DNA of 64,000 nucleotides. Source: Lentisphaerota bacterium. GTDB taxonomy: Bacteria; Verrucomicrobiota; Kiritimatiellia; UBA8416; VGWI01. The notes beneath the pieces were generated by a model. The model saw only the letters and a list, made by a program, of their open reading frames with translations. It made no database searches and was not told where the DNA came from. Location of the stretch: positions 25,357-89,356 of the forward strand of contig VGWI01000002.1 of the NCBI GenBank assembly GCA_016873655.1. The letters run 5' to 3'. Positions 8,075 to 34,810 of the stretch are shown here, piece after piece. Position 1 is the stretch's first letter, and each line of letters begins with the position of its first letter. The position numbers and the translations under genes are program-made.

Positions 8075-8838
8075 CGGACAACGGACAGGTGAAAATCAGA
8101 ACAGAGCGGCTGAACCTCCATTACGGCGCGTTCCACGCCCTGAAGGATGTGGACATGGCCGTGCCGCCGCGCATGATCACCTCCATCATAGGCCCGTCCG
8201 GGTGCGGCAAGTCCACTCTCCTGCGCTGCCTCAACCGCATGAACGATCTCATAGGCACCGCGCGCGTCACGGGCCGCATCCTGCTGGACGGGAAGGACAT
8301 CCTTGCCGGCGGCACGGCAATGACATCGCTGCGCCGCAGGGTCGGCATGGTCTTCCAGCGCCCGAACCCGTTCCCGCTGTCGGTCTTCGACAACGTGTCA
8401 TACGGGCCGCGCGTGCACGGCGAGCTGGACCGCCGCCGCCTTGCCGGAATAGTCGAGTCCGCCCTGCGCGCCACCGGCCTGTGGGAAACACTGAAGGACA
8501 GGCTGAACGAGCACGCCCTCTCGCTCTCGCCGGAACAACAGCAGCGCCTGTGCATCTCGCGCCTGGTAGCCGTCGAACCGGAGGTCCTTCTGATGGACGA
8601 GCCCTGCTCGGCCCTTGATCCGATCGCTACGGGCCATGTCGAAGACCTGATGAAGAACCTCGCACAGAACTACACCATCGTCATCGTAACGCACAACATG
8701 CAGCAGGCGGCCCGTGTTTCCGATGTCACCGCCTTCATGTACCTCGGCAGACTGATCGAGTCCGGCCCCACGAAGGACATATTCGTCAAACCGAAGGAAA
8801 AACAGACCGAGGACTACATCACGGGGCGCTTCGGCTGA
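8071..8838 (+). CDS. pstB: phosphate import ATP-binding protein PstB (copy 2, tandem paralog)
   Basis: Walker [10 protein letters not shown], signature LSPEQQQRL and Walker B LLMDEP. It overlaps copy 1 by 4 nt. Confidence 0.9.
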
Positions 8839-8870
8839 AGCCCCGCGCCGACGCGGAAAGGAAAGCGAAC

Positions 8871-9542
8871 ATGAGAATCCTGCTGGAACGCGAGATTGAC
8901 AGACTGAAGAAGCTCATCCTGGGCATGAGCGCCGAAGTGGAAAGCGAAGTCCACACCGCATGCAACGCCCTGCTGCAGAGAGACGACAAGACCGCGCAGG
9001 CGCTGATAGACGACGTCGACAAGGTTGACACAATGGAGTTGGACGTCGAGGAGGAATGCCTCAAGATCCTCGCGCTTCACCAGCCGGTCGCGGCCGATCT
9101 CCGGTACATCGTCTCGGTAATGAAGATCAACCGCGATCTCGAACGCATATCGGACATAGCGGTCCATATGGCCGAGCGGACCCTGAAGATATTCGCCGAA
9201 CCGGACTTGCTGCTGCCGGCCCAGCTCTCCGACATGTCCGTCCGCGTGCAGGCGATGCTCAAGAAGGTCCTCGACGCGTTTGTCCGGCTCGACGTCGAAG
9301 CCGCCCGCAACGTATGCATGGCCGACTCGGAGGTGGATACGCTCAACCGGGAAGTCCTCCGCCAGGTGAAGGAAGGCGTCCTGCGCAAGCCGGAACAGTT
9401 CGACGCCCTGTTGCAGGTGATGCACGTGTCCCGGCACCTCGAGCGCATCGCCGACCACGCCACGAACATCGCCGAAGACCTGATCTACATGGTGGAAGGC
9501 CGCATCGTCCGCCACTCCCCTGAAGTGTCCGACAAGGGCTGA
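8871..9542 (+). CDS. phoU: phosphate signalling complex protein PhoU
   Basis: A duplicated PhoU domain (DLRYIVSVMKINRDLERISD / HVSRHLERIADHATNIAEDLIY). Confidence 0.9.
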   Translation: MRILLEREIDRLKKLILGMSAEVESEVHTACNALLQRDDKTAQALIDDVDKVDTMELDVEEECLKILALHQPVAADLRYIVSVMKINRDLERISDIAVHMAERTLKIFAEPDLLLPAQLSDMSVRVQAMLKKVLDAFVRLDVEAARNVCMADSEVDTLNREVLRQVKEGVLRKPEQFDALLQVMHVSRHLERIADHATNIAEDLIYMVEGRIVRHSPEVSDKG

Positions 9543-12399: not shown

Positions 12400-13758
12400 C
12401 TATTCGCGCCCGCGCTTCAGGTTGTGCTTCCTGATGAGCCGCTGGAGGTAGGCGCGCTCGATGCCTGCTTCCTTCGCCGCCTGCGATACGTTGCCGTGAT
12501 GGCGGCGCAGCAGATCCTGCACGTAGTCGGCCTCGAACTTGCGGACAAGGTCGTTCTTCACATCCTTGAACGGACGGTCGGCGCTGAAGTCCAGCCCGCG
12601 CGAGTCCTCTTCGGTCTTCAGAATCCCCATGTAAAGAAAGGCGCTCAGGTCTATCGGCCGTTTCTGGCTGTAACACGCTATTTCGACCAGGTTCCGCAGC
12701 TCGCGGACATTGCCGGGCCATGTGTGGTTCCGGAGCGTCTCCATCGCCTTTTCGAAGTTGGCAACCTGTCCCATCGCATCCGGCCCCAGGAAGTCCTTCA
12801 GGAACGACTCGGCCAGCACCGAAATGTCGTCCTTCCGCCTGCGAAGCGCCGGAAGCTCGATGCGCGCAATGGAAAGACGGAAGAATAGATCCTCGCGAAA
12901 GCGCCCGGCCTGCACCTCGTTTACCAGCTTCTTGTTCGTGGCCGAAACGATGCGCACGTCCACGTGGCGGACGGTGTTGCTGCCAACCCGCCGGATCTCG
13001 CGCTTCTCAAGCACCCGCAGCAGCTTCGGCTGAAGCTCGGCGCTGAGGTCGGCAATCTCGTCAAGAAAGACCGTGCCGCCGTCGGCATGCTCGAACGCGC
13101 CGACACGGTCGGTGTTTGCGCCGGTGAAAGAGCCTTTCTGGTGACCGAACAACTCGCTCTCGATCAGCTCGCGGGCAAGCGAGGCGCAGTCAATCACGAT
13201 GAAGGGTTTGTCTTTCCGGCGGCTGTTCCGGTGAATCTCCTCCGCGACCACTTCCTTGCCGGTCCCGGTCTCGCCCTCGATCAGCACGGTCGCGTCGGTC
13301 GGCGCGTAGGTCTCTATCTCGTGAAAAACCCGCCGCATCGCCACACTGCGCCCGAGCAAGGCGCCAAGCGACGTCCGTTCGCTCAGGACGAATTCACGCG
13401 TCTCCTGGAGCGGACAGAACACGATCCGCGCCTTGCCAAGCTGGATCTCGGTGCCTTGCCCAAGGTACGCCTCTGACACCCTGACGCCGTTGACGTACGT
13501 GCCGTTCGTGCTGCCGACATCCCGAACCACGTACCCGTCATCGGGGGTCATCTCGATCTCACAGTGCCCTTTGGATACGGTGTCGTCAGGCAACTGCAGA
13601 TCGTTGTCCGGAGAACTGCCGATCGTGAATGCATCCTTGTCCAGGATGAACTCCCGGCCCTGCAGACCGCCGGATACGACAAGCAGCTTCGCCTTCTTAA
13701 TCAGCATCTGCCCGCACGGGCCGGGCTGCGTAATGATGAGTGTCGGACTGTCCACCAT
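12400..13758 (-). CDS. sigma-54-dependent transcriptional activator with N-terminal FHA domain (FHA, AAA+ sigma54 interaction, HTH)
   Basis: An FHA core ([22 protein letters not shown]...STNGTYVNG), Walker A GETGTGKE, a GAFTGA-like GSFTGA, ESELFGH and a C-terminal Fis-type HTH. It lies 60 bp downstream of the lipid-like operon on the same strand. The alternative start is the Met at 13707. Confidence 0.8.
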
Positions 13759-13817: not shown

Positions 13818-14891
13818 TCAAGGGCCGCGGGATGGGATGGGAGGACGTGGAGAGCCTGTGTGGGACCGCAATTCGACCAGCGCCTCTTCGCGGGTGAAAG
13901 AGCGTTCGCCGGCGTCGGCCATCATGTCCGCAAACCGCTTGCCGGAGAAGTCGAGGTTACGGCTGACCGAGTAGACGGCGTAGTGCGAGGGGTCCATGAA
14001 TGGCCTGTCGGCATCGAAAGCGTTTGACAGGGCGGAAACCATGCGGCCGAGGCCGACGCCTGCCCACATGGGGAGGCAGACTGTCTTGAAACGTTTCCCG
14101 GCCAGGAATACGTCCGCAACCATATGCGTGAACTCGTCAATGCTCGTTCGCTCCAAGTCAACCACGTTGATTGCCCTGCCCGCGGCGGCCCTGACCGTTG
14201 CCGCGAGGAAGCAGGCCTTCGCAACGTTGCGCACATGTGCAAGCGGCCACCTGTTTGCGCCGCGCCACGGCCCAAAGTGGACGATGAAAGGTGAAGAGCG
14301 CAGAAAGGAAGCGACTCTGGAAGTCAGCGTCAGGTCCCCGACGCCCCAGACCTGCGCCGGCCGGAGGATGGAATAGCGATCGGGTTCGAGTCCGGAGCGA
14401 ACGGCTTTCTCGGCCTCGATCTTGAACGCCGGGTACGGATTGGGCGGAAACGGCGAGAGCGGCAGGGCATCCTCGTCCTGGCCGTCGAAATCCCTCAGTC
14501 CGTAGACGTCGGTGGTGGAAACAAACACCAGGCGGCCGACATCGAATTCGTGCGCCAACTCAACCAGGACTCGAACCGGGTCAAGGTTGGTCCTCCGGAA
14601 TCGGGCGGTTCGTCCGGTATCCGTCGCACGGCCGGCGCAATGCACGATCGCATCCAGCTTTCCGCCCGCGGCTGCTTCGCGGACCGTGGCGCGGAGAGAT
14701 GCCGGCACGGTGATGTCGGTTCGCAGGAACGTGGTCTTCTCCAGGCCGGCCAGCACGTCGGCGGGTCTTTCGCCCGCGCCGGGGCGGCGCCTGTGGAATG
14801 TGCCGTACGTATTCCAGCCGCGCAGCGCAAAGAGCGCCGCCGCATAGCTGCCGATGAATCCGCCGGCGCCTGTGACAAGAACGGTGTTCAC
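13818..14891 (-). CDS. NAD-dependent epimerase/dehydratase-family (extended SDR) oxidoreductase
   Basis: A Rossmann motif, [15 protein letters not shown]. It overlaps the upstream gene by 4 nt (ATGA). It is the last gene of the 7-gene operon. Confidence 0.8.
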   Translation of the reverse strand: MNTVLVTGAGGFIGSYAAALFALRGWNTYGTFHRRRPGAGERPADVLAGLEKTTFLRTDITVPASLRATVREAAAGGKLDAIVHCAGRATDTGRTARFRRTNLDPVRVLVELAHEFDVGRLVFVSTTDVYGLRDFDGQDEDALPLSPFPPNPYPAFKIEAEKAVRSGLEPDRYSILRPAQVWGVGDLTLTSRVASFLRSSPFIVHFGPWRGANRWPLAHVRNVAKACFLAATVRAAAGRAINVVDLERTSIDEFTHMVADVFLAGKRFKTVCLPMWAGVGLGRMVSALSNAFDADRPFMDPSHYAVYSVSRNLDFSGKRFADMMADAGERSFTREEALVELRSHTGSPRPPIPSRGP

Positions 14892-16183
14892 GCAATGATC
14901 CCATTCCTGCGCCCGACATCCGCAAAGACGGAAAGGGCGGCGTCTATCTCAATCTCGGTCAGTGTGCTCATTGCGCTCACTCGCAGCCTGCATTCCTTGC
15001 GTCTCACAGCCGGGTATGTGACCAGGTTCGTGAAGACTCCGTTCGCGCGCAGCTCGTTGTGGAAGGCCGCAAGTTTCTGTTCATCGCCGACGATGACAGG
15101 GATTATCGCCGACTCCGTGTCACCGGTGTCGAAACCCAGCGCCTTGAGCCCGTCGCGCAGGCGGGCGATATTCCTCCACAACCTGTCCCTGCCTGCCGCA
15201 TCTGCGCGAATGAGGCGCAATGCCTCGACGAGTCCTGCCGCCGTCGGTGCGGGCATGCTGGTGGAGAAGAAATAGGTGCGCGCGTAGTAACGCAGGTAGC
15301 GGACGACGGACGCGCTTGCCGCGCAGTAGCCGCCTATGGCGCCGGGCGTCTTGCTCAGCGTACCGCAGAGCAGATCAATCCCGCGCGTGCAGCCGAAGTG
15401 CTCGGGCGTGCCCAGACCGGTCGGGCCGACGACTCCAAGTCCGTGCGCATCGTCCACCATCACGCGTGCGCGGTGGCGCCGGGCCAGGTCCGTGATCTCG
15501 TCAAGCGGCGCCAGGTCGCCGTCCATGGAGAAGACACCGTCGGTCACTATGAGCCTGCCGCGGACGGAGTCGGGTATGCGCTGGAGCACTCGCTCAAGGT
15601 GGCGCATGTTGCGGTGCAGGTAGACCTTTATTTCGGCGCCGGAGAGGCGGCAGCCGTCGAATATCGATGCGTGGTTCGAGGCGTCGTTGACAACAACATC
15701 CCCTGGTCCGCACAGGGCGGAGATGATGCCGACGTTCGCGGAGTAGCCGCACGGGAAGAGGATTGCGTCTTCCGTTCCGTAGAGCCCGGAGAGCTCCTCT
15801 TCAACAAGGCGGTGCAGCGGAGTCGTTCCGGCGTACAGGGAAACCGCGCCCATGCCGTAGCCGTACTCGGCGCATGCCTTGATGCTTGCGGCGACAACGG
15901 CGGGATGTGTTGTCAGCGCCAGATAGGAATTGGACCCGAGCATGGTCACTTTGTGGCTGTGGCCGTCGTGCTCGCGGACCGTGCACGTGTGGGCTGCCGG
16001 CCCCTCCATTCGCAGGCCGAGCCCTTCAGTGTACGAAGCCGGGTTGGCGCCCAGGTAGGAATCAAGGGCGTCGGCCTTCGCGAAGATGTCCGCATCGCCG
16101 TCTTGCGGAATGAAGTCCTCGAAGCGCCGTTCGGTCCCGTCCTCGCCACTGTCGCCGGGCAGCTTTCCCGGTTCCTTGTTCAT
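14888..16183 (-). CDS. alpha-oxoamine synthase family PLP-dependent acyltransferase (Spt/Kbl/BioF-like)
   Basis: A class I/II aminotransferase fold with a PLP-Lys context, [17 protein letters not shown], plus SMDGDLAPL and DDAHGLG. It has an N-terminal extension of about 60 aa. The ATG at 16183 overlaps the upstream stop. Confidence 0.8.
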
Positions 16184-17397
16184 GTGGTTGCCTTTCTCCT
16201 TCGGTGGCAGCGAAGCGGAGTGTGCGAATCGCAATACACCGTGCACAGGTTGCAGTTGGTACAGCCCGACCGTTCAGCCGAGCCCGACAGAAGACGCGCC
16301 GGCAAACCAGGGTCATGGACCAGCGGTCTGCACAGCGAAACGGCATCGAGTCCGTGTTCCGAACGCGCGCGGAGCATTCCGTCCGGCGAGCGAATGCCGC
16401 CCACGGCCCAGACGGGCACAGGCACCGCTTTCCGGATGGCGGCCGCGGCCGGTACGTTGTAGTTCTCGCAGAACGGTATCAACCCGCGAAGATGGAACCG
16501 TGCGAACAGCGCCTTCCACGGCGTCCTTGCCCAGCGCGGGATACGCGCGAAGAGGGGATTGACGCACAGTGCAACATCCACCGGGCAGGCGCCGCGGATG
16601 ATGTTGAGCGCCGTCTCCATGGTTCCGTAACTCACTTCGAAGGCGTCAGCTCCGGCAGCGGCCGCGCGCCGTGCAGCGGTCACCGCGTCAGCCGTTGTCA
16701 GCCCCGGCCTGTTGTCGTCGCCGGCGCTCAATTTGACGAGGATGCCGAAATCAGGGCCTGTTTCCTCGCGGATGGCGCGCACTATTTCCTCGAGAAACAC
16801 CGGGCGGTCGCCCCAGCGGTCGCGGCGATTGTTTGTCCATGGCGACAGGAACTGGTGCACAAGGTAGCCGTGCGCGCCGTGCACCTGCACCCCGCTGAAT
16901 CCCGCCTTTTGCGCGCGCGCCGCGGCCGCGGCGAACTCGGCGACAACGCCGGCGACTTCGGAGTCGGACAGCCGGCGCACCTTCTGCCGGAAGTATGTGC
17001 ACCGGCGGGTGGACGCGCCGACCGCCTCCATTCCGGTGGCTTCATGGCGCGTCTGCCGGCCGGCGTGGGCCAGCTGCATGAACAGCGGGACGAGCGAGCC
17101 CGCCGAACGCGCAACTCGAACCGTTTCAGTCCAGGCCGGCAGCTTGTCATCAGAATCGATCCCGCACTGGCCCGGCTGCATCGCGCGGCCCTGCCGGGAA
17201 ACGAATGCAAAGCCTGTTATCAACGCGCCTGTTCCGCCCTTCACGAGTTGCGCGTACAGTTCACCCAGCGCCGGAGTAGGGAAGCCTTCGGAATCAGCCA
17301 TGCCCTCATAGGTGGCGGAGCGAACGATGCGGTTGGCGGCCGTGACCGAACCGAGGCGAAGCGGTGTTGCAAGAGACTGCGTAAGTCCGGAAGTCAT
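16180..17397 (-). CDS. Old Yellow Enzyme-family NADH:flavin (FMN) oxidoreductase / ene-reductase
   Basis: The motifs [10 protein letters not shown] and [28 protein letters not shown] are OYE signatures. The start is the Met at 17397 (ATGA overlap). Confidence 0.8.
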
Positions 17398-18398
17398 TTG
17401 CCCTCTCTTCCGGCAAGCAGCCGCTTTGCCTCCGCAACAGCTGCAAGCGCGTGCTGTCCGGCGTCGCGGGCTTCGCGCGGGCACGGCGGTGGACACGTCA
17501 TGGGCAAAGCGCGGGCGTCTGCAGCGGCAAAGAACACGCCGGCCTCGTTCGAGGGAAACGCACGGCCGATCCTCGTGAGGCCGGCCCGTGCACATTTCGC
17601 GGCGAGTGTGCCGCCGTCCCCGGCTGGAAACGAGAAGAGCAATTCGTATTCCCCCGCGCCGCCGAACAGGGCCGATTCGGGCGGCGCGCCGATTGCAGCG
17701 CAGGCCTGTTTCACTCCCTCGGAATAGGGTATCGCCGGCAGCTCCACTTCAAGGCGCATGCCTGGACTTGCGCGCCTCATCATCCACAGCGCATCCGCCA
17801 GGCCACCGCTGGTATCCGTGCCGGCAACGGCGGCTTCACGCGCCAGCGCAGCGGCGTTAACGCGCAGCTCCAGCGCCGGGGTGGGCGCCCCTGTCAGCGC
17901 GGCGGCGTTCATGTGCCCCAGGGCGCCGGAGATCCACAGATCCTGCTCCACGGCGGGAAGCACGCGTTTCAGCGGGGTGCGCGCCGCGAGCGGGCCCATC
18001 GCGAAGCCGGCATAGCGCCATTCGCCGGCTGTGCCGAGGTCGCCCCCGCACAGCGCACAGCCGGCGGAATCGAGAATGCGGGACAGCCCGCCGCAAAGGG
18101 CGGAGACGAAGTCGGCGGATACGTCGGCCGGCAGCGAAATGGAATGGAGCATGAAGCGCGGCTCCACGCCCGCTGCGAGCAGGTCGCTCAACGTCGCGAC
18201 CGCAAGATTCGCGCCCAGCAGGTCCGGGTCCGCGGAAGTGAACAGGTCCTCCTTCTCGCTGAATTCGTCCACCGTCAGGCCCCACACCGCGCCGCCCACG
18301 CGGATGAATTCGGCGTCGCTTTCGAACGGCGCGTTGAGCTGTTCCGGACTGCGCCTGAAGCGCGAAGCGATCGCCGCTATCGTTTCGTATTCGTTCAT
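17394..18398 (-). CDS. AIR synthase-related (PurM superfamily, ThiL/HypE-like) ATP-dependent enzyme
   Basis: An N-terminal ESDAEF...[13 protein letters not shown] region and a C-terminal domain typical of the PurM/ThiL fold. It is 334 aa. Confidence 0.65.
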
Positions 18399-19333
18399 GG
18401 CGCAGTTCCTTCCGGCGAAGCGGGGCCGCGCGTTCCGCAGATCAGGTCAAGGCGGCGCGCGTGCAGCTCAATACTGACCGGCAGACCGCCGTGCGAATCG
18501 CCATCGAACTCGACGGAGACCGGCCGTTCCGTGCGCATGGAGAACCTTCGGCAACTGCCGGTGAAGACTCCTTCCGCGTTCACGGCCGAACCCGCGTAGA
18601 AGGCCGGGAGAAGCGCGAGCATGCCGGTTCGGCTGCGTCCCGAGACGGTCACGACCGTCAGCAGGCCGTCGTCCGGAGACCGGTCCACACTCAGCCGCAG
18701 GCCGGAGGCGATCCACGGATTCTTGAGAACAGCCACGTGGTTCACGCCGCGGAGTTCCATGCGCCGGCCGTCCAGAAGTATCTCCGCGTCGAACCTGCGC
18801 ACGGTCGCGATGGCGCAGAGAAGCGCCATCGCCGTGCCCGCGGTGTCGCCAGTGAACCGCCGCAGGCGGTTCGCGATATCCGCCGTTTTTGCTCCCAGCC
18901 CGATGTTGCAGCCGCAGCCGAACCATGAGGTCGCCGGACCGCCGGCATTCTGGAACCCGATTGATGCCACATCAACCTTTGTGGCAAGGCCATCCAGCAG
19001 CACCTGCAGCGCCGCGGCCGGATCCGTCGGGATGGAATGAAAGCGGCAGAAGTCGGGGCTTGTCCCGGCGTACAGAACGCCCATGCGCCTCTCCGCGGCG
19101 GGCGCATCAGCCAGCCCGGCGAGCACCGCGTTGATGGTTCCGTCTCCGCCAACCGCGACAACGACATCAAACCCGGGGGCTTCGGTTGCCAGTTGCCGTG
19201 CATGGCCGAGGTCGCGCGTCACAACCGGTTCAAAGTCGGCTCCGGCGCGTTTCATGCCCTCTGTCCAGAACTTCCATCGCTTCCGGCCGCGGCCGGCGCG
19301 GGATCCGGGATTCAGGATCAACAGGTATTTCAC
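18395..19333 (-). CDS. DAGK_cat-family lipid kinase (YegS/BmrU/sphingosine-kinase-like)
   Basis: YLLILNPGSRAG plus VVAVGGDGTINAVL, the GGDGT signature of diacylglycerol kinase catalytic domains. The GTG start at 19333 overlaps the upstream stop (GTGA). Confidence 0.75.
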   Translation of the reverse strand: MKYLLILNPGSRAGRGRKRWKFWTEGMKRAGADFEPVVTRDLGHARQLATEAPGFDVVVAVGGDGTINAVLAGLADAPAAERRMGVLYAGTSPDFCRFHSIPTDPAAALQVLLDGLATKVDVASIGFQNAGGPATSWFGCGCNIGLGAKTADIANRLRRFTGDTAGTAMALLCAIATVRRFDAEILLDGRRMELRGVNHVAVLKNPWIASGLRLSVDRSPDDGLLTVVTVSGRSRTGMLALLPAFYAGSAVNAEGVFTGSCRRFSMRTERPVSVEFDGDSHGGLPVSIELHARRLDLICGTRGPASPEGTAP

Positions 19334-20619
19334 CGGTAGATGCCCAGCTTGTCGTAAACAGGCGTTCTGCCGCCGCGGTCCCAGCCGGCGATCAGTTCCT
19401 GTGTCTGCGGCCAGCGCAGCGGCATGTCGGACAGGGAGTTGCGCCGCGCTATCGCCGCGATTGCGGCGCCTTGCGTGCAGCAGAGCCAGTCGCAGCAAGG
19501 TTCGCGGAAGGCATCGCGCATCCTGGCGAGGATTGTCTCGAACGGCTCCTCGGCCACGTTTCCGAACGAGACGTTGAGAAACTCGCACGGCTGCACTTCT
19601 CCGTGCGCGTTCATGTAGAAGCGGTCCACGCCGCCGGCGGTACAACCGAGAACATCCGGCGACTCCTCGAAGACCTGCGCCGCAAGCGACGGATGGCCCT
19701 GGAAGGCGCGTGAATTGTAGCGGAGGTGCTGGGCACGGAGATGACGCAGCACGGCGGGGTCGGTCTGCATTTCCTCGCGGCGGCCGAGCCAGCGGCCTGC
19801 GGGCTTGGGATGGATGAGCTGCACGAAATCGCAGCCCTGGTCCCCTGCGAAATCCATCAGGTCCGTCAATCTGCCGTCGCGGACTTCCTGTTCGGAAAGG
19901 ACGCTGTTCACCGCGGTGACGAAGCCGTGCTTCTTGAACATCCGCAGCGCCCGGACCGCGGAACCGAAGGAGCCTGCGACGCCGGTCATTCGATCATGCT
20001 TCTCCCGGCTGGTGGAATGGACAGAGATCATGACCCCGTAAAGTCCCGCGTCTTCCAGTTCGCGCAGCATGTTTTCTTCGAGCCCGTCGCCGGTGGTGTT
20101 GACCCATATCTCGGAACGTTCATCCAGCGCCCGCATCAGGGCGATCAACCGGTCAAAGCGCAGAAGCGGTTCGCCGCCCTCGATGTCGAACATGGCAACG
20201 CCGGCGTCGCGCATGGCCACGGCCGAAGCGGCCATCAGTTCCGCGTCCATGTCCGCGCCTCGGTCCGTCCTCTGGTAGCAATGCTCGCAGCGGTAGCGGC
20301 AGGCCTTTGTCATCGAGAACACCACCGTGGTCGGGCCGGGCGGCCGCCTGACGAGTTTCGCGTCGAGCGCGTGGAAGAAGGCGGGGGACGGGTAGGCTGG
20401 CAGGTAGAGGTGCAGCTTGATGCCGGACCTGGTGCGGACGGCCTTGTTGTGCCTGAAGACGAGCAGCAGTCGGAGCGCCCGCGAAAGGAACAGGATGTAG
20501 TCCTTCGGCGACCAGCGCAGCTCGCCCATGCGGCGGGCATAGCGGAGCGCGACGCCTGCCGCTATTCGGACATACGTCCACGCCTTGGCCGGTCCGGTGA
20601 TGAAACGGCTGTCTTTCAC
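19330..20619 (-). CDS. radical SAM enzyme with C-terminal SPASM/twitch-type auxiliary cluster domain
   Basis: CRYRCEHC is a CxxxCxxC motif. The SPASM-like region is GCTAGGVDRFYMNAHGEVQPCEFLNVSFGN, and an extra CCDWLCC follows. The GTG start at 20619 overlaps the UbiA stop. The alternative start is the Met at 20529. Confidence 0.75.
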   Translation of the reverse strand: MKDSRFITGPAKAWTYVRIAAGVALRYARRMGELRWSPKDYILFLSRALRLLLVFRHNKAVRTRSGIKLHLYLPAYPSPAFFHALDAKLVRRPPGPTTVVFSMTKACRYRCEHCYQRTDRGADMDAELMAASAVAMRDAGVAMFDIEGGEPLLRFDRLIALMRALDERSEIWVNTTGDGLEENMLRELEDAGLYGVMISVHSTSREKHDRMTGVAGSFGSAVRALRMFKKHGFVTAVNSVLSEQEVRDGRLTDLMDFAGDQGCDFVQLIHPKPAGRWLGRREEMQTDPAVLRHLRAQHLRYNSRAFQGHPSLAAQVFEESPDVLGCTAGGVDRFYMNAHGEVQPCEFLNVSFGNVAEEPFETILARMRDAFREPCCDWLCCTQGAAIAAIARRNSLSDMPLRWPQTQELIAGWDRGGRTPVYDKLGIYR

Positions 20620-21608
20620 GAGCGGGCGTCCTTGTGAAGATCGAAGAGGAAGCCGATGAACACATAGCTGGCAGTGAGCAGGTACAGCGCAAGCGTGCCG
20701 TTGAAGATGGCGATCATCGTCACCTGGCCGGCCACGCAGGCGCGGATATTCGTAACCAGGCTGAAATACGTTCTGTCGCCCAGCGGATGACGGAAGTAGA
20801 GAACGGCCGTCCAGAGCTGAAGAAACAGTGTCATCACAGCGCAGAAGACGAAGTCGCGCATGAACAGCACGTCGCCCAGCGGCAGCCAACCGAGAGAATG
20901 CAGCAGCACGAAAAGGAGCGTTGGGAGAAATGCGCCGGCGACGCCGGCATAGCGGGCGGCGTTCAGGCCGTACTTGACGACAAACGTCTTCTTCCCCGCC
21001 GCCCTGTCACCCCTGTAGTCCTTGAAGTAGGTATAGTATGTCATCAGCGCGTTGATCAGCGCCACCAGCGCGAAAGCCGATATGCGGTTGCTGGTGAAGA
21101 GCGGCGTTGGAGGCGGTCCTGAGGCAAGAAACCCGTATGCCATGCACGTCGCGATGGAGAGTCCGAAGACCGCGTTTCCGACAAGCGACCATGCCTTCGC
21201 GTATTCGTACAGGATGTTCAGAAGCACCCCGATCACGGCGGGAACAACGGACCACGGTTCGAGGAACCATGACACGGCTCCGACCAGGAAGAGGAGCCCG
21301 ACCGAGACAAGCATGGCGGCCCCGGGGTTGAGTTCGCCGGTAACCATCGGCCTGTTGGGTGCGTTGATGCGGTCTTCCTTCAGTCCGAAGAAGTCGTTGA
21401 TGACCTGGTTGACGCCGTAGCTGAGGAACAGCATGCCGAGTATCAGGGCCTTGCGCCCCGCCCCCCCGGCGCCGGGGCAGCAGAAGTCATAAAAGGATAC
21501 GCCTATCCAGCCGGCTATGCCGGTGACAAACGAGAAGTACAGCCGCATCGAGCGGATGTAAGCGAAGATGAAGGCGAGGGTGGAGCCGGAGCCGGAGCCA
21601 ACATTCAT
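20616..21608 (-). CDS. UbiA-family aromatic/alkyl prenyltransferase (ChlG/DGGGPS-like subfamily)
   Basis: It has 8-9 TM helices. The Asp-rich motif VINDFFGLKEDRINAPNRPMVTG resembles the NDxxDxxxDxINxPxRP motif of chlorophyll synthase and DGGGPS. It is the first gene of the operon. The long N-terminal part of ORF 20616..22064 is discarded as non-coding. Confidence 0.8.
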   Translation of the reverse strand: MNVGSGSGSTLAFIFAYIRSMRLYFSFVTGIAGWIGVSFYDFCCPGAGGAGRKALILGMLFLSYGVNQVINDFFGLKEDRINAPNRPMVTGELNPGAAMLVSVGLLFLVGAVSWFLEPWSVVPAVIGVLLNILYEYAKAWSLVGNAVFGLSIATCMAYGFLASGPPPTPLFTSNRISAFALVALINALMTYYTYFKDYRGDRAAGKKTFVVKYGLNAARYAGVAGAFLPTLLFVLLHSLGWLPLGDVLFMRDFVFCAVMTLFLQLWTAVLYFRHPLGDRTYFSLVTNIRACVAGQVTMIAIFNGTLALYLLTASYVFIGFLFDLHKDARS

Positions 21609-21764
21609 TGCCGCATTGAACCCTGAAGCGGGAGCGGCTTCAATCGCTTTCTTTTCGTCCCGGCAACCTGACGTGGCAGGCTGGACTGAAAGGCCAGGAA
21701 CGAATATTGTGGCCGGGTTGTTCGAATGAAGTTCTGATGCGGCGCGTGTCGGAGGACGGCGGTC

Positions 21765-23255
21765 ATGCCTCGAATAGACGAGTTCCTGCGGATAATGCTC
21801 GAGCGGGGGTCCAGCGACCTTCACATGGTAAGCGGGCACAGGCCGTACCTGCGCGTCTCCGGAGACGTGACGCCGATCGAGGAGATGGCGGCCCTCTCCA
21901 GCGATGAGATCCGCGGGATTGTCGAGGAAATAGCCCCGGAAGACAACCGCGCCCAGTTCAGCGCCGATTGGGACACGGACTTCGCCTACCAGAACTCGGA
22001 CCTCGAGCGCTTCCGTGTGAACTGTTTCATGGATAGCAACGGCGCGGGCTCTGTCATCCGCCACATACCGGGCGCCATCCCCACTTTCGACCAGCTCGGC
22101 CTTCCCCAGGTCCTGCGCGAGATGTGCCTGCTGACCAAGGGCCTGGTGATAGTCACCGGGCCCACGGGCTGCGGAAAATCAACCACCCTCGCGGCCATGA
22201 TAGACCTCATCAACAGGACAAGGGCCGAGCACATTGTTACGATCGAGGACCCGATCGAGTTCATGCACAAGCCCAAGATGTGCCTCATCAACCAGCGCGA
22301 AGTTCACAAGCACACGAAGAGCTTCTCGGCAGCGCTGCGGGCTGCCCTGCGCGAAGACCCCAACATCGTGCTCGTGGGCGAAATGCGAGACCTTGAAACC
22401 GTGGAAATCGCGCTGGAAACCGCGGAAACCGGCCACCTCGTGTTCGGCACGCTGCACACAAACACCGCCGTCTCCACGATCGACCGGATCATCGACAAGT
22501 TCCCGTCCGGCGAACAGAACCAGATACGCACGATGCTCGCCGATACGCTCAAGGGCGTTGTCGCCCAGACACTGTGCAAACGCCGCACCGGCGGACGCGT
22601 TGCGGCAATGGAGATCCTGGTGGTCACTTCCGGAATAGCTTCGAACATACGCGACGGGAAGTCGCACCAGATCGCCTCTTCGATCCAGACAGGCGGCGCG
22701 CTCGGAATGTGCCTCTTCGAAGACAGCCTTTTTGCACTCGTACGCGACGGGGCAATAACCACGAAGGAAGCGTATCTGAAGGCCGTGCGGAAAGACCTCA
22801 TACGCAAGAAGCTGCTCGACGCCGGCTTCCCGCTGGACGTCGGCGCGGACGAGATCCGCAGGAACGAGGGCAGCCTGGAAGAAGGGACATCGGCCCGCCC
22901 GGAAGAGGACATGCTCACGGAGTGCAGGGAGCGTCTGCGAACCGACCCCGACAACGTGGACTCGCTGTGCGACGCGGCATGGATCATGTCCGCCGGCGGC
23001 GATCTGAGCCTCAGGAAAGGGCGCGATGCCGTGAAGCTGGCCGAGCGCGCGGCGAAACTGACCGGCGGCAACGACATGCACGTCCTGATAGTTCTCGCCG
23101 CCGCGCAGGCGGAAAGCGGCAACTTCAAACGGGCGGTTGGTTTCGCGACCCAGGCGCTGGAACTGGCCGAGATCGCGGGAAGCGACAGCATTGCCGAACA
23201 ACTCCGCGCGCACCTGGCCACGTATGAGCAGAACCGCGCGCTGGGCCGGACCTGA
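21765..23255 (+). CDS. pilT: type IV pilus retraction ATPase PilT-like with C-terminal TPR-like extension of about 150 aa
   Basis: Walker A GPTGCGKSTT and PilT motifs (His/Asp boxes, GMCLFEDSL). The residues after about 345 are alpha-helical and TPR-like. Confidence 0.8.
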   Translation: MPRIDEFLRIMLERGSSDLHMVSGHRPYLRVSGDVTPIEEMAALSSDEIRGIVEEIAPEDNRAQFSADWDTDFAYQNSDLERFRVNCFMDSNGAGSVIRHIPGAIPTFDQLGLPQVLREMCLLTKGLVIVTGPTGCGKSTTLAAMIDLINRTRAEHIVTIEDPIEFMHKPKMCLINQREVHKHTKSFSAALRAALREDPNIVLVGEMRDLETVEIALETAETGHLVFGTLHTNTAVSTIDRIIDKFPSGEQNQIRTMLADTLKGVVAQTLCKRRTGGRVAAMEILVVTSGIASNIRDGKSHQIASSIQTGGALGMCLFEDSLFALVRDGAITTKEAYLKAVRKDLIRKKLLDAGFPLDVGADEIRRNEGSLEEGTSARPEEDMLTECRERLRTDPDNVDSLCDAAWIMSAGGDLSLRKGRDAVKLAERAAKLTGGNDMHVLIVLAAAQAESGNFKRAVGFATQALELAEIAGSDSIAEQLRAHLATYEQNRALGRT

Positions 23256-23333: not shown

Positions 23334-25529
23334 ATGACCCGTCTGCTCACGATTGCGCTGATGGTGGCCGCCTCCGCGGCGGGCGCCGCGGCGCCCGTCC
23401 TGAAGTTCGAGCCGTTCCATTCGGACGTGGCCCGGCTTATTGTTTCGGAAGTCGCCCGCGACCACCTGAGCCACCGCGCCGCGGACGATACGGTTTCCGC
23501 CCGGGCATGGACAAATCTTCTCTCCGGCCTGGACTATGACCGCCTCTATTTCACCGCCGAAGACATCCGCGCATTCCGTTCGGCCGAGTTGACCCTCGAC
23601 GACGACCTGCGTGCCGGGGACCTGGACTTTGCCGCCGCCGTGTTCTCGAAGTTTGTCGAACGCGTGGAGGAACGGCTCTCCTTTACGGAGAGCATCCTCG
23701 CAAAGGGCTTCGATTTCACGAAGGACGAGTATTTCGAATGGCGCCGGCGCGACATGCCGTGGCCGGCCGCCGGCGCGGAACGGGACGAACTCTGGCGCAG
23801 GAAGATCAAGAACGACTACGTGCGCGAACTCGTGTTGCGCCGCATTGCGGCCAACGCAGCAACGAACGCGCCGTCTGCGGAATCCGCCGCCACCAACGCT
23901 CCGCCGGCGGGCGCGGAGACTTCATCCACGAACTCCGCCCCGCCGCAGGCAATACTCCCTGAGAAGACCGTGGAGGAGACAATCCTTGAGCGGCAACGGC
24001 AGGCGATGACTGTTTTCCGCGACAGCGATTCCGAATGGCTGCTGCAGAAGTACATGTCCGCCTTCACCCGTGCGTACGATCCGCATTCGGACTACATGTC
24101 GCCGAGCACTGCCGAGGATTTCGACATCGGAATGAAACTCTCACTGTTCGGGATCGGTGCGCTCCTGAGCCCGGATGACGGGGCGGCGAAGGTGGTCCGG
24201 CTCATACCCGGCGGACCCGCGGACCGCGACAAGAGACCCTTCAGGCTGCAGCCCAACGACCGGATCGTGGCCGTCGCACAGGGCAGCGACCCGCCGGTGG
24301 ATATCCTGCACTGGCCGCTTCACAAGACGGTCGCAATCATCCGCGGCCCGAAGGGGACGAAAGTGGTTCTCACCGTGATTCCGGCTTCCGATCCGACCGG
24401 TTCGACGACAAAGACCGTCGACCTCGTGCGGGACGAGGTCCGCCTCGAGGACCAGGAGGCGAAACTCAGGATTGAAGACGTGCGCGGCGAGAATGGCGAA
24501 GGCCCCGTCAAGGTCGCCGTCGTCAGGATCCCGGCATTCTACGCGAACATGAAGGTCCGCTCGAAGCGCAGCCCGGAATACAAAAGCGCCGCCCAGGACG
24601 TCGAGGCCCTGATCGCCCAGGCGTTGAAGGAGGGAGCGAAAGGCATGGTTCTCGACCTGCGCGGCAACGGAGGCGGATCCCTGCTCGAAGCGATCCGCAT
24701 GACGGGCCTGTTCATCCGGAACGGCCCCGTGGTACAGGTCATGGAATCGGAGGGCTTCACCGTGCTTCAGGACCGCGACCCCTCCATCGCCTTCGCAGGT
24801 CCGCTGGTGGTTCTCGTGAACAGGCTCAGCGCGTCCGCCTCCGAGATTCTCTCCGCGGCGCTGCAGGACTACGGCCGCGCAATCATCGTCGGCGACGCGA
24901 AGACGCACGGCAAGGGCACCGTGCAGTCGGTCCGCCCGCTCGGTCCGGATCCGAAGTTCGGTTCCATCAAGGCCACGACGGCGGTGTTCTACCGCGTGAA
25001 CGGACTCTCGACCCAGCTCGAGGCGGTCCGGCCGGATATCCCCCTGCCCTCGCCGCTGGACTACATGGAGCTTGGCGAGGAGTTCCTGCCCAACCCGCTG
25101 CGGTCTTCCCCCGTGCCGCCGGCCGTCTACGGCCCGCTGTTCGACCTGTCAGCCCTCACAACCGAGTTGAAGCGAAGGTCGGAAACGCGCCGCGCCGCCG
25201 ACCCGCGACAGCCGGTCTACGCAAAGGTACTGCAGCGCGTGCGCGAACTGCACGAAAGCCGCAGGCTCCCGCTCAAGCTTGAGGACCGCATGTCGCTTGC
25301 GCGCATGGAAGAGGAAATCCGGGATATCGAAAGCGATTTCAGCGACTCCGGCGAGGAAGACGACACCGGCCGGAACGGCAAGCCCGACCTGGCGGAGGAG
25401 GAAGCCGTCAGGATAGTCGCGGACATTGTCACCCTCTGCCCCGACATGGAAGGACAGATTCTCGACAACCGCGGGCCGCCGGACCTGGGCAACTGGCTCC
25501 AGCAGATGCTCAGACGCAGCGCGCTGTGA
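23334..25529 (+). CDS. prc: tail-specific (C-terminal processing) S41 protease Prc-like
   Basis: A signal peptide, a PDZ region and an S41 core (GNGGGSL, LVNRLSASASEI). A low-complexity ATNAP-rich linker is present. Confidence 0.8.
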   Translation: MTRLLTIALMVAASAAGAAAPVLKFEPFHSDVARLIVSEVARDHLSHRAADDTVSARAWTNLLSGLDYDRLYFTAEDIRAFRSAELTLDDDLRAGDLDFAAAVFSKFVERVEERLSFTESILAKGFDFTKDEYFEWRRRDMPWPAAGAERDELWRRKIKNDYVRELVLRRIAANAATNAPSAESAATNAPPAGAETSSTNSAPPQAILPEKTVEETILERQRQAMTVFRDSDSEWLLQKYMSAFTRAYDPHSDYMSPSTAEDFDIGMKLSLFGIGALLSPDDGAAKVVRLIPGGPADRDKRPFRLQPNDRIVAVAQGSDPPVDILHWPLHKTVAIIRGPKGTKVVLTVIPASDPTGSTTKTVDLVRDEVRLEDQEAKLRIEDVRGENGEGPVKVAVVRIPAFYANMKVRSKRSPEYKSAAQDVEALIAQALKEGAKGMVLDLRGNGGGSLLEAIRMTGLFIRNGPVVQVMESEGFTVLQDRDPSIAFAGPLVVLVNRLSASASEILSAALQDYGRAIIVGDAKTHGKGTVQSVRPLGPDPKFGSIKATTAVFYRVNGLSTQLEAVRPDIPLPSPLDYMELGEEFLPNPLRSSPVPPAVYGPLFDLSALTTELKRRSETRRAADPRQPVYAKVLQRVRELHESRRLPLKLEDRMSLARMEEEIRDIESDFSDSGEEDDTGRNGKPDLAEEEAVRIVADIVTLCPDMEGQILDNRGPPDLGNWLQQMLRRSAL

Positions 25530-25559
25530 CATGTCCCGCGGCGGCAGGAAAATTCAGCA

Positions 25560-26384
25560 GTGGACATCTCTTTCACCAAGATGCACGGCGCCGGCAACGA
25601 CTTTATCGTTGTTGACGACCGCGACGGGACGTTCCCGGAAGCGGACCGGGCCTGGATCGCCGGCATCTGCGCGAGGAACACCGGTGTCGGCGCGGAAGGC
25701 GTCATCCTGGTGCGCCGGTCGGACACGGGCGATGCCGCAATGCGCTTTCTCAATCCGGACGGACGGTCCGCCGAGTTCTGCGGCAACGGCGCGCGCTGCG
25801 CCGCGCGCTTCGTCTCCCGCATGAGCAACGGCAAGTCCGCAATCCGCCTTGAGACGGATTCGGGCCTGCTGAACGCGGAGGCGGGCGAAGATGTCGTCTG
25901 GATTGACATGCCGCGCCCGTCGGGACTGCGCCTGAACGAGAACCTGGCCGCGGGGGATGGAATGCTCACTTGTCACCGGGTCACGGTCGGTGTTCCGCAC
26001 GCGGTGATTGTTGTGGATGACCTCGCGGGCGTTGATGTGGCTGGCACAGGGCGCTCGGTCCGCATGCACGCGGCATTCGCGCCGGCCGGGACCAACGTTG
26101 ATTTCATCGCCCCGTCCGGCCGTTCATCTCTCTCGATCAGAACCTACGAGCGCGGAGTCGAGGCGGAAACCGGGGCCTGCGGATCGGGAGCGGTTGCGGC
26201 ATGTCTGGCTGCCGCGCGGCTTGGGTTGATCGAACTGCCGGCAACGGCCCGCACCCGCCTCGGTTACGAGCTGTCCGTCGCCGCCGAAGCCGCCGGCGAC
26301 TCGTTCGACCGCGTCCGGCTCGGCGGCACGGCGGAGTATGTGTTCGCCGGAACCGTCCGCTACGGAAAGGAGTTCCCGCGTTGA
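25560..26384 (+). CDS. dapF: diaminopimelate epimerase
   Basis: MHGAGNDFIVVDD, an active-site Cys context FCGNGARC, and a second-domain GSGA motif. Confidence 0.85.
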   Translation: MDISFTKMHGAGNDFIVVDDRDGTFPEADRAWIAGICARNTGVGAEGVILVRRSDTGDAAMRFLNPDGRSAEFCGNGARCAARFVSRMSNGKSAIRLETDSGLLNAEAGEDVVWIDMPRPSGLRLNENLAAGDGMLTCHRVTVGVPHAVIVVDDLAGVDVAGTGRSVRMHAAFAPAGTNVDFIAPSGRSSLSIRTYERGVEAETGACGSGAVAACLAAARLGLIELPATARTRLGYELSVAAEAAGDSFDRVRLGGTAEYVFAGTVRYGKEFPR

Positions 26385-27151
26385 GGATAGCGACGTTCAA
26401 CGCGAACTCCGTGCGGTCGCGGCTGGATATCATCACTGCATGGCTCGGGAAGCATGAGCCGGACGTGCTGTGCATCCAGGAAACGAAGGTGCAGGACCCG
26501 GACTTCCCGGCAATCGCCTTCTCCGGCATCGGCTATCACGCCGTGTTCCGCGGAGAGAAGTCCTACAACGGCGTCGCGGTCCTCTCGCGCCTGAAGCCGG
26601 ATGATGTGAGTTTCGGGCTGAACGACGGCGAACAGCCGGACGAGACCCGCCTCGCATACGCAAGGTTCGGCCGCCTGCACGTTGTCAACACGTACGTGCC
26701 GCAGGGACGCGAACTGGACCACCCGATGTACGCCTACAAGCTGCGCTGGCTGAAGCGGCTGCGTTCGTGGTTCGACCGCCGGTTCTCGCCGCGCATGCAG
26801 GTGGCATGGTGCGGCGACATGAACGTCGCCCGGGAGCCGGCCGACGTGCACAACCCGCAGGAGCAGTCAGGCCACGTCTGCTTTCACGAGGACGTACGCA
26901 AGGCATTCGCGGAGGTAGTCGACTGGGGGTTCGTCGACGTGTTCCGGAAGCACCACCCCGGGCCGGGCGCGTATTCGTTCTTCGATTACCGTATGCCAGG
27001 GGCGGTTGACCGCGGACTCGGATGGCGGGTCGACCTGGTCATGGCCTCAAAGCCACTTGCGAAACGCTCAACCGCGTGCTTCATAGACCTCGACCCGCGC
27101 CGCGCCGAACGCCCGTCCGACCATACCTTCGTCGTCGCCGACTTCGAATAG
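26381..27151 (+). CDS. xth: exodeoxyribonuclease III (Xth family AP endonuclease)
   Basis: A TTG start overlapping the dapF stop. The product MRIATFNANSVRSRLD...CIQETK...DHTFVVADFE matches the EEP nuclease family. Confidence 0.8.
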   Translation: MRIATFNANSVRSRLDIITAWLGKHEPDVLCIQETKVQDPDFPAIAFSGIGYHAVFRGEKSYNGVAVLSRLKPDDVSFGLNDGEQPDETRLAYARFGRLHVVNTYVPQGRELDHPMYAYKLRWLKRLRSWFDRRFSPRMQVAWCGDMNVAREPADVHNPQEQSGHVCFHEDVRKAFAEVVDWGFVDVFRKHHPGPGAYSFFDYRMPGAVDRGLGWRVDLVMASKPLAKRSTACFIDLDPRRAERPSDHTFVVADFE

Positions 27152-27204: not shown

Positions 27205-27380
27205 GCGCGGATTATTCATGTTCTTCGTCGCGAGAGGGCGCAGGGTGCGTCAGATCAACGGCTTGCCGAAGAGGGCCGGATGGCGGCGTGTTGACACACG
27301 CCAAAGTCGGCCATCAAGGTAAGTCGATGAGGTGACGTATCATGTGCACTCGCAGCAGAAGGTTCATGAATAATGTGCGC
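27205..27380. mobile_element. MITE-like 176-bp element, copy B (inverted relative to copy A)
   Basis: Its reverse complement matches 1696-1872 with 2-3 mismatches. The terminal repeats are GCGCGGATTATTCATG ... CATGAATAATGTGCGC. It abuts the rhaB stop codon. Confidence 0.6.

Positions 27381-32561: not shown

Positions 32562-34810
<2,249 letters not shown>

Follow-up and report, generated by a model that had tools for sequence, protein, structure and literature searches.

The described systems closest to the locus reported here are (i) bacterial sphingolipid synthesis, known from Caulobacter and Bacteroidota (Spt, bCerS, CerR and ceramide kinase), (ii) the archaeal ether-lipid pathway (GGGPS, DGGGPS, CarS, GGR and Tes), (iii) systems that activate an alcohol to a diphosphate in two steps and then transfer an alkyl group (the ThiD/ThiL pair acting with ThiE in thiamine synthesis, and the plant VTE5/VTE6 pair feeding ChlG or VTE2), and (iv) the alpha-oxoamine synthase (AOS) pathways leading to the autoinducers CAI-1 and LAI-1 (CqsA or LqsA with a reductase) and to the sulfonolipid capnine (the AOS CapB with the reductase CapC). 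Each of them shares features with a block of seven genes located in a 64,000-nucleotide stretch of DNA (hereafter, the window) of a Lentisphaerota bacterium (contig VGWI01000002.1, assembly GCA_016873655.1). This block, self-contained and 7.8 kb in size, is a probable lipid biosynthetic operon composed of known superfamilies in an undescribed combination, and it is a single tightly coupled unit, conserved across many phyla regardless of its neighbours. A literature search (Creative Commons-licensed articles of PubMed Central and bioRxiv only, so that absence is no proof) yielded no description of the gene combination. The initial annotation of the window had likewise named no pathway of this composition, and none of the seven proteins reaches any equivalog cutoff of NCBIfam release 20.

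The seven genes are encoded on the minus strand, from position 21608 to position 13818 of the window. Translation of the intervals gave seven uninterrupted, in-frame open reading frames (ORFs), each with a start codon and a TGA stop, just where the initial annotation had placed them. In order, they encode: (i) a UbiA-superfamily integral membrane transferase of the DGGGPS/ChlG type (330 aa; 20616-21608; Pfam UbiA, 87.7 bits); (ii) a radical S-adenosylmethionine (SAM) enzyme (429 aa; 19330-20619; Radical_SAM, 63.3 bits, and SPASM, 22.3 bits); (iii) a soluble lipid kinase of the DAGK_cat/YegS type (312 aa; 18395-19333; DAGK_cat, 82.3 bits, and YegS_C, 70.4 bits); (iv) an ATP-dependent enzyme of the PurM superfamily, nearest to ThiL (334 aa; 17394-18398; AIRS, 48.8 bits); (v) a flavin mononucleotide (FMN)-dependent ene-reductase of the Old Yellow Enzyme (OYE) family, YqjM type (405 aa; 16180-17397; Oxidored_FMN, 155.8 bits); (vi) a pyridoxal phosphate (PLP)-dependent AOS (431 aa; 14888-16183; Aminotran_1_2, 173 bits); and (vii) an extended (epimerase-type) short-chain dehydrogenase/reductase (SDR), presumed to be a ketoreductase (357 aa; 13818-14891; Epimerase, 92.7 bits). 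Every domain call of the initial annotation was matched by Pfam, and all the motifs that it quoted are present. Adjacent genes overlap by a 4-nt start/stop sequence at all six junctions, as had been annotated, which leaves no intergenic space inside the operon; five of the junction strings read as previously given, and the sixth, at 14888-14891, is GTGA and not ATGA. The lengths of the first five products (330, 429, 312, 334 and 405 aa) were reproduced by an independent gene caller on other contigs with identical proteins, where these five genes are covered whole. The G+C content is approximately 64% across the window, and the block shows no compositional anomaly.

The distribution of the block was analyzed in 80 fetched loci, searched by tblastn with all seven proteins. 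A compact set of all seven genes in the same order was found in 34 of them, and a further six differ only in lacking the OYE gene; this shared order is far beyond chance. The other loci were colinear up to a contig end (18/80), rearranged or expanded (11/80), or contained partial sets, mostly colinear and not classed as contig-truncated (11/80). Synteny, which the initial annotation had proposed to follow across genomes, is preserved, the block being colinear across at least 12 phylum-level labels. According to the record titles, which are subject to the usual caveat of binning of metagenome-assembled genomes (MAGs), the carriers include Verrucomicrobiota, Kiritimatiellia, Lentisphaeria, Planctomycetota, Armatimonadota, Elusimicrobiota, Sumerlaeia and Gemmatimonadales, as well as Desulfovibrio, "Deltaproteobacteria," Eisenbacteria, Auribacterota, Riflebacteria, Acidobacteriota and Alphaproteobacteria. 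Of the 185,579 GTDB species representatives (one genome per species), 259 encode a protein related to the radical SAM enzyme of the block. Catalytic residues are conserved in all seven families.

Among the neighbours of the fetched loci, no gene outside the seven-gene block is conserved between lineages, and no conserved prenyl synthase, acyltransferase or head-group transferase was found beyond it. In a neighbor-joining tree of the radical SAM protein the phyla are intermixed: Elusimicrobiota form two distant clades, Phycisphaerales fall within Lentisphaeria, and Desulfovibrio groups with Lentisphaeraceae. Given these unconserved flanks and intermixed phyla, the behaviour of the block is that of a self-contained unit that moves horizontally. 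Alphaproteobacteria bacterium PG1894_72 has the cluster twice, on different contigs (loci L068 and L076), and a further locus was found in PG1894_49 (L074). The two copies group with those of Elusimicrobium and not with a proteobacterial clade, which suggests a recent transfer. One locus (L071; approximately 883,858-891,025 of NZ_CP152277.1) comes from a complete genome, that of the named strain Elusimicrobium posterum Dip510, which for these reasons is probably in culture.

Several of the rearranged clusters carry additional genes. In Riflebacteria, a 12-gene operon has the order UbiA-OYE-MMPL-ketosynthase (KS)-acyl carrier protein (ACP)-dehydratase-AOS-SDR-radical SAM-DAGK-ThiL, with a 367-aa ORF without a Pfam match as the 12th gene. 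In independent lineages, namely a "Deltaproteobacteria" MAG (L072) and further, unclassified MAGs, KS and ACP genes are likewise inserted beside AOS-SDR, with or without a dehydratase and together with an MMPL exporter. These insertions suggest that the AOS takes an acyl-ACP substrate and that a lipid is exported. Together with the DGGGPS match of the UbiA protein and the UbiA-radical SAM fusions described below, they support the lipid product proposed in the initial annotation; a lipid would also be in keeping with the UbiA protein as the sole membrane protein of the block, with the DgkB/YegS-like kinase, and with the fusion of distant radical SAM relatives to PlsC acyltransferase and FAR-type reductase domains. 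To judge from the enzyme families, the most likely product would be a phosphorylated amino-alcohol membrane lipid, and in our estimate the chances are about even that the seven genes, inherited together, constitute a single biosynthetic module whose product is a membrane-associated amphiphile. The example given in the initial annotation, a prenylated or ether-linked sphingoid or amino-ketone lipid, may be one form of such a product.

The AOS has the general features of its family, i.e., an invariant PLP-binding lysine (K278), an N-S-Y motif and a C-terminal arginine, and it forms a clade of its own, which its NCBIfam scores put at equal distances from Spt, Kbl and BioF. It remains below each of the subfamily cutoffs: Kbl (361 vs. 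460 bits), BioF (360 vs. 426), ALAS (256 vs. 338), the CqsA type (208 vs. 428), and the Spt equivalogs NF047600, NF047599 and NF047603 (337 vs. 640, 328 vs. 500 and 277 vs. 670, respectively). The best match in the PDB is the serine palmitoyltransferase (SPT) of Sphingobacterium (269 bits, approximately 42% identity), followed by KBL of Escherichia coli (253 bits); structures of CqsA and cysteate-C-fatty acyltransferase match at 150-206 bits, below Spt and Kbl. In SPT, the loop A79-G-S81-R-F83-L-N85 walls the amino-acid and acyl pocket (PMC10196870), and this loop is replaced family-wide by G-A-V-S-L-Y-A-G. Recognition of serine by SPT is mediated mostly by water and the backbone (PMC10196870); for this reason, and because of the different loop, the SPT structures permitted no assignment of the amino-acid specificity of the AOS. 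Its family membership makes the condensation of an amino acid with a long-chain acyl thioester probable. The SDR protein has GxxGxxG and Y153-x3-K157 motifs, both invariant in 42 sequences, and its best NCBIfam match is the 2-alkyl-3-oxoalkanoate reductase OleD (65 vs. 580 bits). The AOS and SDR genes are adjacent in most loci, including the rearranged ones, and this adjacency, with SPT as the best solved relative of the AOS, argues for a module of the sphingoid type.

By analogy, the AOS, the reductase and the DAGK-type kinase would resemble the front end of bacterial sphingolipid synthesis, with which the operon shares an AOS, an epimerase-family reductase, a DAGK_cat kinase and, in some variants, a dedicated ACP. 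The same three enzyme types make up part of the Caulobacter sphingolipid pathway. It could be argued that the locus is nothing but an ordinary ceramide pathway (Spt, CerR-type reductase, ceramide kinase) lying beside unrelated genes, which would account for an AOS nearest to solved SPT structures occurring together with an epimerase-family reductase and a DAGK_cat kinase. This explanation is highly improbable: the three Spt equivalog models fail, the substrate-wall loop is different, and no N-acyltransferase of the ceramide-synthase type is encoded in the block or its conserved neighbours. Moreover, the operon adds the UbiA, radical SAM, ThiL-like and OYE proteins, which are seen in no described sphingolipid pathway. 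Three of these (UbiA, radical SAM and ThiL-like) are co-inherited in nearly all loci, and UbiA is fused to the radical SAM protein in some, so they are not bystanders.

An AOS followed by an NAD(P)H-dependent reductase is also the logic of CAI-1 and LAI-1 synthesis (CqsA or LqsA with a reductase), and the operon shares it with these systems and with capnine synthesis. The AOS and SDR could accordingly make an alpha-hydroxyketone or amino-ketone resembling an autoinducer, later prenylated and phosphorylated, the product being a diffusible signal and not a bulk lipid. The matches of the AOS to the CqsA-type model and to CqsA structures are consistent with such a role, as are the patchy, mobile-looking distribution, similar to that of accessory metabolite clusters, and the presence of a sigma-54 activator gene 59 nt downstream of the operon in this window. 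We nevertheless regard a signal as improbable. The CqsA-type score is the lowest of the AOS subfamily scores and short of its cutoff, UbiA, radical SAM and kinase partners are missing from the known systems, the sigma-54 regulator is not conserved beside the cluster elsewhere, and a receptor or sensor kinase co-occurs nowhere. The MMPL exporter, KS/ACP and high cross-phylum identity (medians of 66% for UbiA and 57% for radical SAM) would suit a structural lipid better.

The OYE protein belongs to the YqjM class (PF00724, 155.8 bits), with H173-x2-H176-x-Y178 invariant in 50 sequences. In the same sequences, a C-terminal motif, C379-x2-C382-x2-C385-x3-C389-x7-C397, is nearly invariant and forms a predicted Fe-S site. 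PDB matches are YqjM-class OYEs and the N-terminal domain of FadH; the matches span this domain only, and the protein (405 aa) ends without the C-terminal FAD/NAD(P)H domain that FadH and BaiCD have. Given the five-cysteine motif and the missing NAD(P)H domain, it is akin to the Fe-S flavin module at the N-terminus of FadH and enoate reductases. Its gene is the dispensable member of the block, present in 51 of the 80 loci and missing from six otherwise complete clusters. In the lineage with UbiA-radical SAM fusions (L081, 15132-16628, and also L082), the OYE gene is missing, and the SDR gene is followed by genes for a nitroreductase-family FMN protein with ferredoxin-type cysteine motifs and a GDSL lipase/esterase. 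There, the nitroreductase/Fer4 gene may have taken the place of the flavin/Fe-S reductase without being its orthologue; as a general substitute for OYE it was ruled out, being confined to this lineage.

Membership of the UbiA protein in its superfamily is clear (PF01040, 87.7 bits vs. a cutoff of 34.2), and multiple hydrophobic segments mark it as the sole membrane-integral protein among the seven. Its identity has a median of 66% across 71 loci. The family signature consists of N71-D72-x2-G75-x2-E78-D79-R-I-N-x-P-x-R-P and D197-x2-G-D201. In an alignment of 68 members, the second motif (D197-x3-D201) is invariant, whereas the first one keeps N71, D72 and D79, has an additional invariant glutamate (E78), and carries glycine in place of the middle aspartate of the canonical NDxxDxxxD in 63 members. 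The best NCBIfam matches, PRK12884 (73 bits) and DGGGPS (61 bits), are both far below the cutoffs; for the DGGGPS equivalog models NF009521 and NF009522 the scores are 61 vs. 296 and 52 vs. 353 bits, respectively. The sole PDB sequence match at E ≤ 0.001 is DGGGPS of Methanocaldococcus jannaschii (6m31; E = 1.9e-11). The motif regions of the two proteins match closely (VINDFFGLKEDRINAPNRP in the UbiA protein and VINDIFDIEIDRINKPSRP in M. jannaschii DGGGPS), the INDxF..DRINxPxRP and FxDxxGD motifs being near-identical. As DGGGPS is the only solved sequence match at this threshold and has near-identical motifs, the UbiA protein may be viewed as a chain-adding enzyme.

With the archaeal ether-lipid pathway the operon has in common a DGGGPS-like UbiA protein, a reductase and a radical SAM enzyme, a trio that would echo diether and tetraether synthesis. 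The differences are considerable: the DGGGPS cutoff is not reached, the middle aspartate of motif 1 is replaced by glycine, the reductase is of the OYE and not the GGR type, no GGGPS, glycerol-1-phosphate dehydrogenase or CarS is encoded in the block or its conserved neighbours, and no close relative of the radical SAM protein is available as a solved structure, its structural matches being generic folds with TM-scores of approximately 0.5. Genes of the DGGGPS type are widespread in bacteria, and their function is acknowledged to be unclear (PMC6431249). Public databases name the UbiA protein "ubiquinone biosynthesis protein UbiA" or, in JGI records, "geranylgeranylglycerol-phosphate geranylgeranyltransferase." An NCBI entry from a "Lentisphaerae bacterium" MAG is 100% identical to it.

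The second PDB match of the UbiA protein is chlorophyll a synthase (E = 0.002), and this brings in tailoring of a cofactor, tetrapyrrole or quinone, in which a UbiA protein similar to ChlG or heme O synthase would prenylate a ring processed by an AhbD/NirJ-like radical SAM enzyme, with the AOS acting in the manner of ALAS or Kbl. Weak NCBIfam likenesses of the appropriate kind exist for UbiA (ChlG and BchG, 50 and 47 bits), for the radical SAM protein (NirJ2, AhbD and NirJ, 85, 80 and 68 bits) and for the AOS (ALAS, 256 bits), but these scores are far below the cutoffs (313 for ChlG, 500 for both NirJ2 and AhbD, and 338 for ALAS), and the AOS scores higher with Kbl, BioF and Spt than with ALAS. 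No tetrapyrrole or quinone gene is adjacent to the block in any locus, no cobalamin, thiamine pyrophosphate (TPP) or other riboswitch was detected upstream of the operon, and a lipid kinase, KS/ACP and MMPL would be out of place in such a pathway. A role of this kind is therefore very improbable. The described heme, chlorophyll and menaquinone clusters were rejected as homes for these genes, with no equivalog match (ChlG, AhbD, NirJ2 or MqnP, the last at 31 vs. 430 bits) and no such neighbours.

The two kinase-type genes form a fixed pair: wherever both were detected, the DAGK-type gene directly precedes the ThiL-like one. The DAGK-type protein exceeds the cutoffs of both DAGK_cat and YegS_C and falls just below that of TIGR00147 (YegS/Rv2252/BmrU; 100.1 vs. 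118.65 bits). Its GGDGT motif is invariant in 68 sequences, and DgkB of Staphylococcus aureus (2qv7) is the best PDB match. The ThiL-like protein belongs to the PurM superfamily (AIRS, 48.8 bits vs. a cutoff of 24) and is below the ThiL equivalog TIGR01379 (106.9 vs. 184 bits). All its top phmmer matches in the PDB are ThiL proteins, and an AlphaFold2 model (pLDDT 92) retrieved ThiL of Aquifex aeolicus as the top Foldseek hit (E = 6e-24, TM-score 0.71-0.77), followed by SelD and HypE. Residues D28, D44, D195 and S197 are invariant in the family, and no fusion proteins were found among its best 120 clusters. The public label of this protein, often "thiamine-monophosphate kinase," is unsupported.

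ThiL converts thiamine phosphate to its diphosphate, and the operon shares with the ThiD/ThiL and VTE5/VTE6 systems a lipid-alcohol kinase followed by a ThiL-like kinase, together with a diphosphate-using UbiA protein, although the kinase families are unlike VTE5/VTE6 and ThiD and the ThiL cutoff is not attained. To our knowledge, every characterized UbiA-superfamily enzyme uses a diphosphate-bearing electrophile. The lipid alcohol made by the AOS and SDR (optionally with OYE) could then be converted by the DAGK-type and ThiL-like kinases to a monophosphate and a diphosphate that serves UbiA as the donor; the alkyl group would be moved to an acceptor common in the cell or to another molecule of the same kind, and the fused radical SAM enzyme would process the adduct. 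This is the logic of ThiD followed by ThiE and of VTE5/VTE6 followed by ChlG or VTE2. Such a scheme makes economical use of the pair, giving UbiA and both kinases one joint purpose, explains the absence of a polyprenyl-diphosphate synthase around the block, and fits the order of a monophosphate-making kinase directly followed by the nearest type of phosphate-to-diphosphate kinase, adjacent wherever both are detected. Furthermore, the expanded clusters contain KS, ACP and dehydratase genes and no enoyl reductase gene, so that a 2-enoyl chain, and an allylic C3 alcohol after the AOS and SDR, would be expected. Against this, UbiA donors must form stabilized (allylic or anomeric) cations, and the OYE present in 51 of the 80 loci would remove the C=C bond needed; DAGK_cat kinases normally act on primary hydroxyls; the UbiA sequence is nearest to enzymes that take geranylgeranyl diphosphate or phytyl diphosphate; and the acceptor is not evident. 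The lipid diphosphate as a UbiA donor is the main rival of the scheme proposed below and appears rather unlikely.

The radical SAM protein contains the C107-x3-C111-x2-C114 motif, invariant in 79 sequences, which places it in the radical SAM superfamily. A conserved N-terminal helical extension of approximately 95 aa precedes the core, and an auxiliary Fe-S (SPASM/twitch-like) domain forms the C-terminus. The SPASM call of the initial annotation stands insofar as the Pfam score (22.3 bits) is just above the cutoff of 21.5 and three auxiliary cysteines (C326, C345 and C380) are invariant; the string CCDWLCC on which it also relied is not conserved as such, with C381 present in 60 and C375 in 39 of the 79 sequences. 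A full SPASM domain has seven cysteines in the C-terminal auxiliary region. With only three invariant, the enzyme likely carries one auxiliary, twitch-like Fe-S cluster. Full-length homologues with 57-76% identity occur in many phyla, the median for the loci being 57%. An AlphaFold2 model (pLDDT 90) retrieved from the PDB only generic folds with TM-scores of approximately 0.5 (SkfB, SuiB, viperin, DesII, BlsE, MoaA, PqqE and anSME), so that the structure pointed to no particular function.

A maturase of ribosomally synthesized and post-translationally modified peptides (RiPPs), similar to SkfB, SuiB or PqqE, was rejected: the operon has no intergenic space for a precursor gene, and the SkfB and SuiB matches are of the generic kind. 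The N-terminal extension of the model has the order helix-helix-helix-hairpin-helix, unlike RiPP recognition elements (RREs), in which the domain order is strand-first.

An exhaustive search of 1.84 billion representatives revealed two UbiA-radical SAM fusion proteins (P0244, 739 aa, and P0245, 721 aa). Each belongs to a 90% cluster in which six or more members are full-length and lie on independent contigs. The genes for these fusions are found in the context [UbiA-radical SAM]-DAGK-AIRS-AOS-SDR-nitroreductase/Fer4-GDSL lipase. As it is fused to UbiA in some lineages, the radical SAM enzyme would be held at the membrane. A fusion of SDR with the radical SAM protein (P0242) is a singleton. The radical SAM protein also has more remote relatives (approximately 30% identity) that are joined, in large fusions, to a PlsC acyltransferase, a FAR-type reductase or a methyltransferase domain, which suggests a wider, unstudied clade of putative lipid-modifying radical SAM enzymes. 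The distant fusion proteins, which carry DUF362, class I methyltransferase, PlsC or FAR-type NAD_binding_4 domains, are P0249 (1467 aa), P0273/P0279/P0327, P0332 and P0349, the last two representing singleton clusters. In an Omnitrophota MAG (L070, 9974-11293), a radical SAM gene of orthologue level (44% identity) stands alone; the remaining six are absent up to a distance of 10 kb, its neighbours being the housekeeping genes for SecDF, an Mfd-like protein, SurA, PdxA and KsgA.

The readings of the operon as a source of a signal, a cofactor or tetrapyrrole, a plain ceramide or a RiPP are all much less likely, and a phosphorylated amino-alcohol membrane lipid remains the preferred product, for which the following scheme is proposed. 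The AOS would form an alpha-amino ketone from an amino acid (of the serine, glycine or alanine type) and a long-chain acyl thioester (acyl-ACP or acyl-CoA). If the acyl chain is 2-enoyl, the Fe-S OYE could, as an optional tailoring step, reduce the C=C bond conjugated to the carbonyl or thioester. The extended SDR would then reduce the ketone to a vicinal amino alcohol, i.e., a sphingoid-type base, whose hydroxyl would be phosphorylated by the DAGK-type kinase. The resulting single-chain lipid phosphate would be a structural analogue of geranylgeranylglyceryl phosphate, the acceptor of archaeal DGGGPS. The DGGGPS-like UbiA protein would add a second hydrophobic chain, taken from a polyprenyl diphosphate of the host, to the free hydroxyl or amino group and so fill the place of the N-acyltransferase (bCerS) in ceramide synthesis; this use of the lipid as a UbiA acceptor seems plausible, if somewhat short of probable. 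The radical SAM enzyme might next modify an unactivated position of the UbiA product by cross-linking, ring formation, desaturation or oxidation. Finally, the ThiL-like enzyme could convert the lipid monophosphate to a diphosphate, modelled on the reaction of ThiL; the diphosphate would be an activated head group or, alternatively, the form handled by UbiA. The complete hybrid, a sphingoid-type amino-alcohol (di)phosphate with an isoprenoid or other alkyl second chain attached by UbiA and then remodelled by the radical SAM enzyme, would be a new class of membrane lipid and is put forward tentatively.

Several observations weigh against this scheme. All of its chemical steps are drawn from family membership, and it has no compelling need of the ThiL-like and radical SAM steps. 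The AOS is as near to the short-chain enzymes Kbl and BioF as to Spt, and its loop resembles neither that of SPT nor that of Kbl/BioF. The first aspartate-rich motif of the UbiA protein is non-canonical, and no polyprenyl-diphosphate synthase gene is present in or near any variant of the cluster. The likeness of the PurM-type protein to ThiL is modest (107 vs. 184 bits), with similar TM-scores for HypE and SelD, and the enzyme may instead activate an amide or carbonyl in the manner of PurM, HypE or PurL. Lastly, three loci (L062, L041 and L080) contain a UbiA-radical SAM-DAGK-ThiL core without an adjacent AOS gene, so the core may accept another input.

If the scheme is correct, the operon makes a new lipid class by an unprecedented combination of enzymes in hundreds of mostly uncultivated species (259/185,579 in GTDB), and this lipid might serve as an environmental biomarker with a known genetic basis. 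It is conceivable, though on balance doubtful, that a lipid uniting sphingolipid and archaeal ether-lipid chemistry has spread horizontally among uncultivated, probably largely anaerobic members of the PVC group, Elusimicrobiota, Armatimonadota, Riflebacteria and others. The radical SAM proteins would then be a new, very strongly conserved subfamily (approximately 57% identity across phyla), physically coupled to a UbiA transferase, and the ThiL-like kinase would possibly have the first lipid substrate of its kind. The public annotation of the UbiA and PurM-type proteins, which is generic or wrong, would need correction, the UbiA clade being located in a non-glycerol, AOS-based context. This clade bears on surveys of the bacterial/archaeal "lipid divide," in which bacterial DGGGPS-like genes are counted (PMC6431249). 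The block is likewise relevant to the evolution of sphingolipids and isoprenoid lipids and to radical SAM enzymology; it is compact and easy to test, and its occurrence in E. posterum Dip510 makes direct testing feasible.

The operon is preceded by a divergent intergenic region of 156 nt (21609-21764), the presumed promoter region. No Rfam match at E ≤ 1 was found upstream of the operon, and 21609-21764 contains no convincing sigma-54 or sigma-70 consensus, the promoter and terminator scans giving results at chance level. Divergent from the operon is a gene for a PilT/T2SSE-type ATPase, followed by genes for a tail-specific protease (S41), DapF and a protein of the endonuclease/exonuclease/phosphatase family (21765-23255 and 23334-27151, plus strand); these look like an ordinary housekeeping context. 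The sigma-54 activator gene downstream of the operon (12400-13758, same strand) encodes FHA, Sigma54_activat and HTH_8 domains. It was ruled out as an eighth gene, having a homologue beside the cluster in no other locus.

Further upstream genes include a rhamnose-type catabolic set (27380-32232, minus strand) encoding an FGGY sugar kinase, a class II aldolase and L-rhamnose isomerase; RhaA, 609 aa as called, matches Pfam from residue 194, indicating an internal true start or an N-terminal extension. F1 ATP synthase subunits beta, gamma and alpha are encoded at 32562-36616 (minus strand), and an FGE-sulfatase-domain protein of 608 aa at 37357-39183 (plus strand). On the other side of the operon, two adjoining ORFs for ABC-transporter ATPases (PstB-like by position) are followed by PhoU (7304-9542, plus strand). 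The sole Rfam match in the window is a tRNA at 62209-62279 (plus strand).

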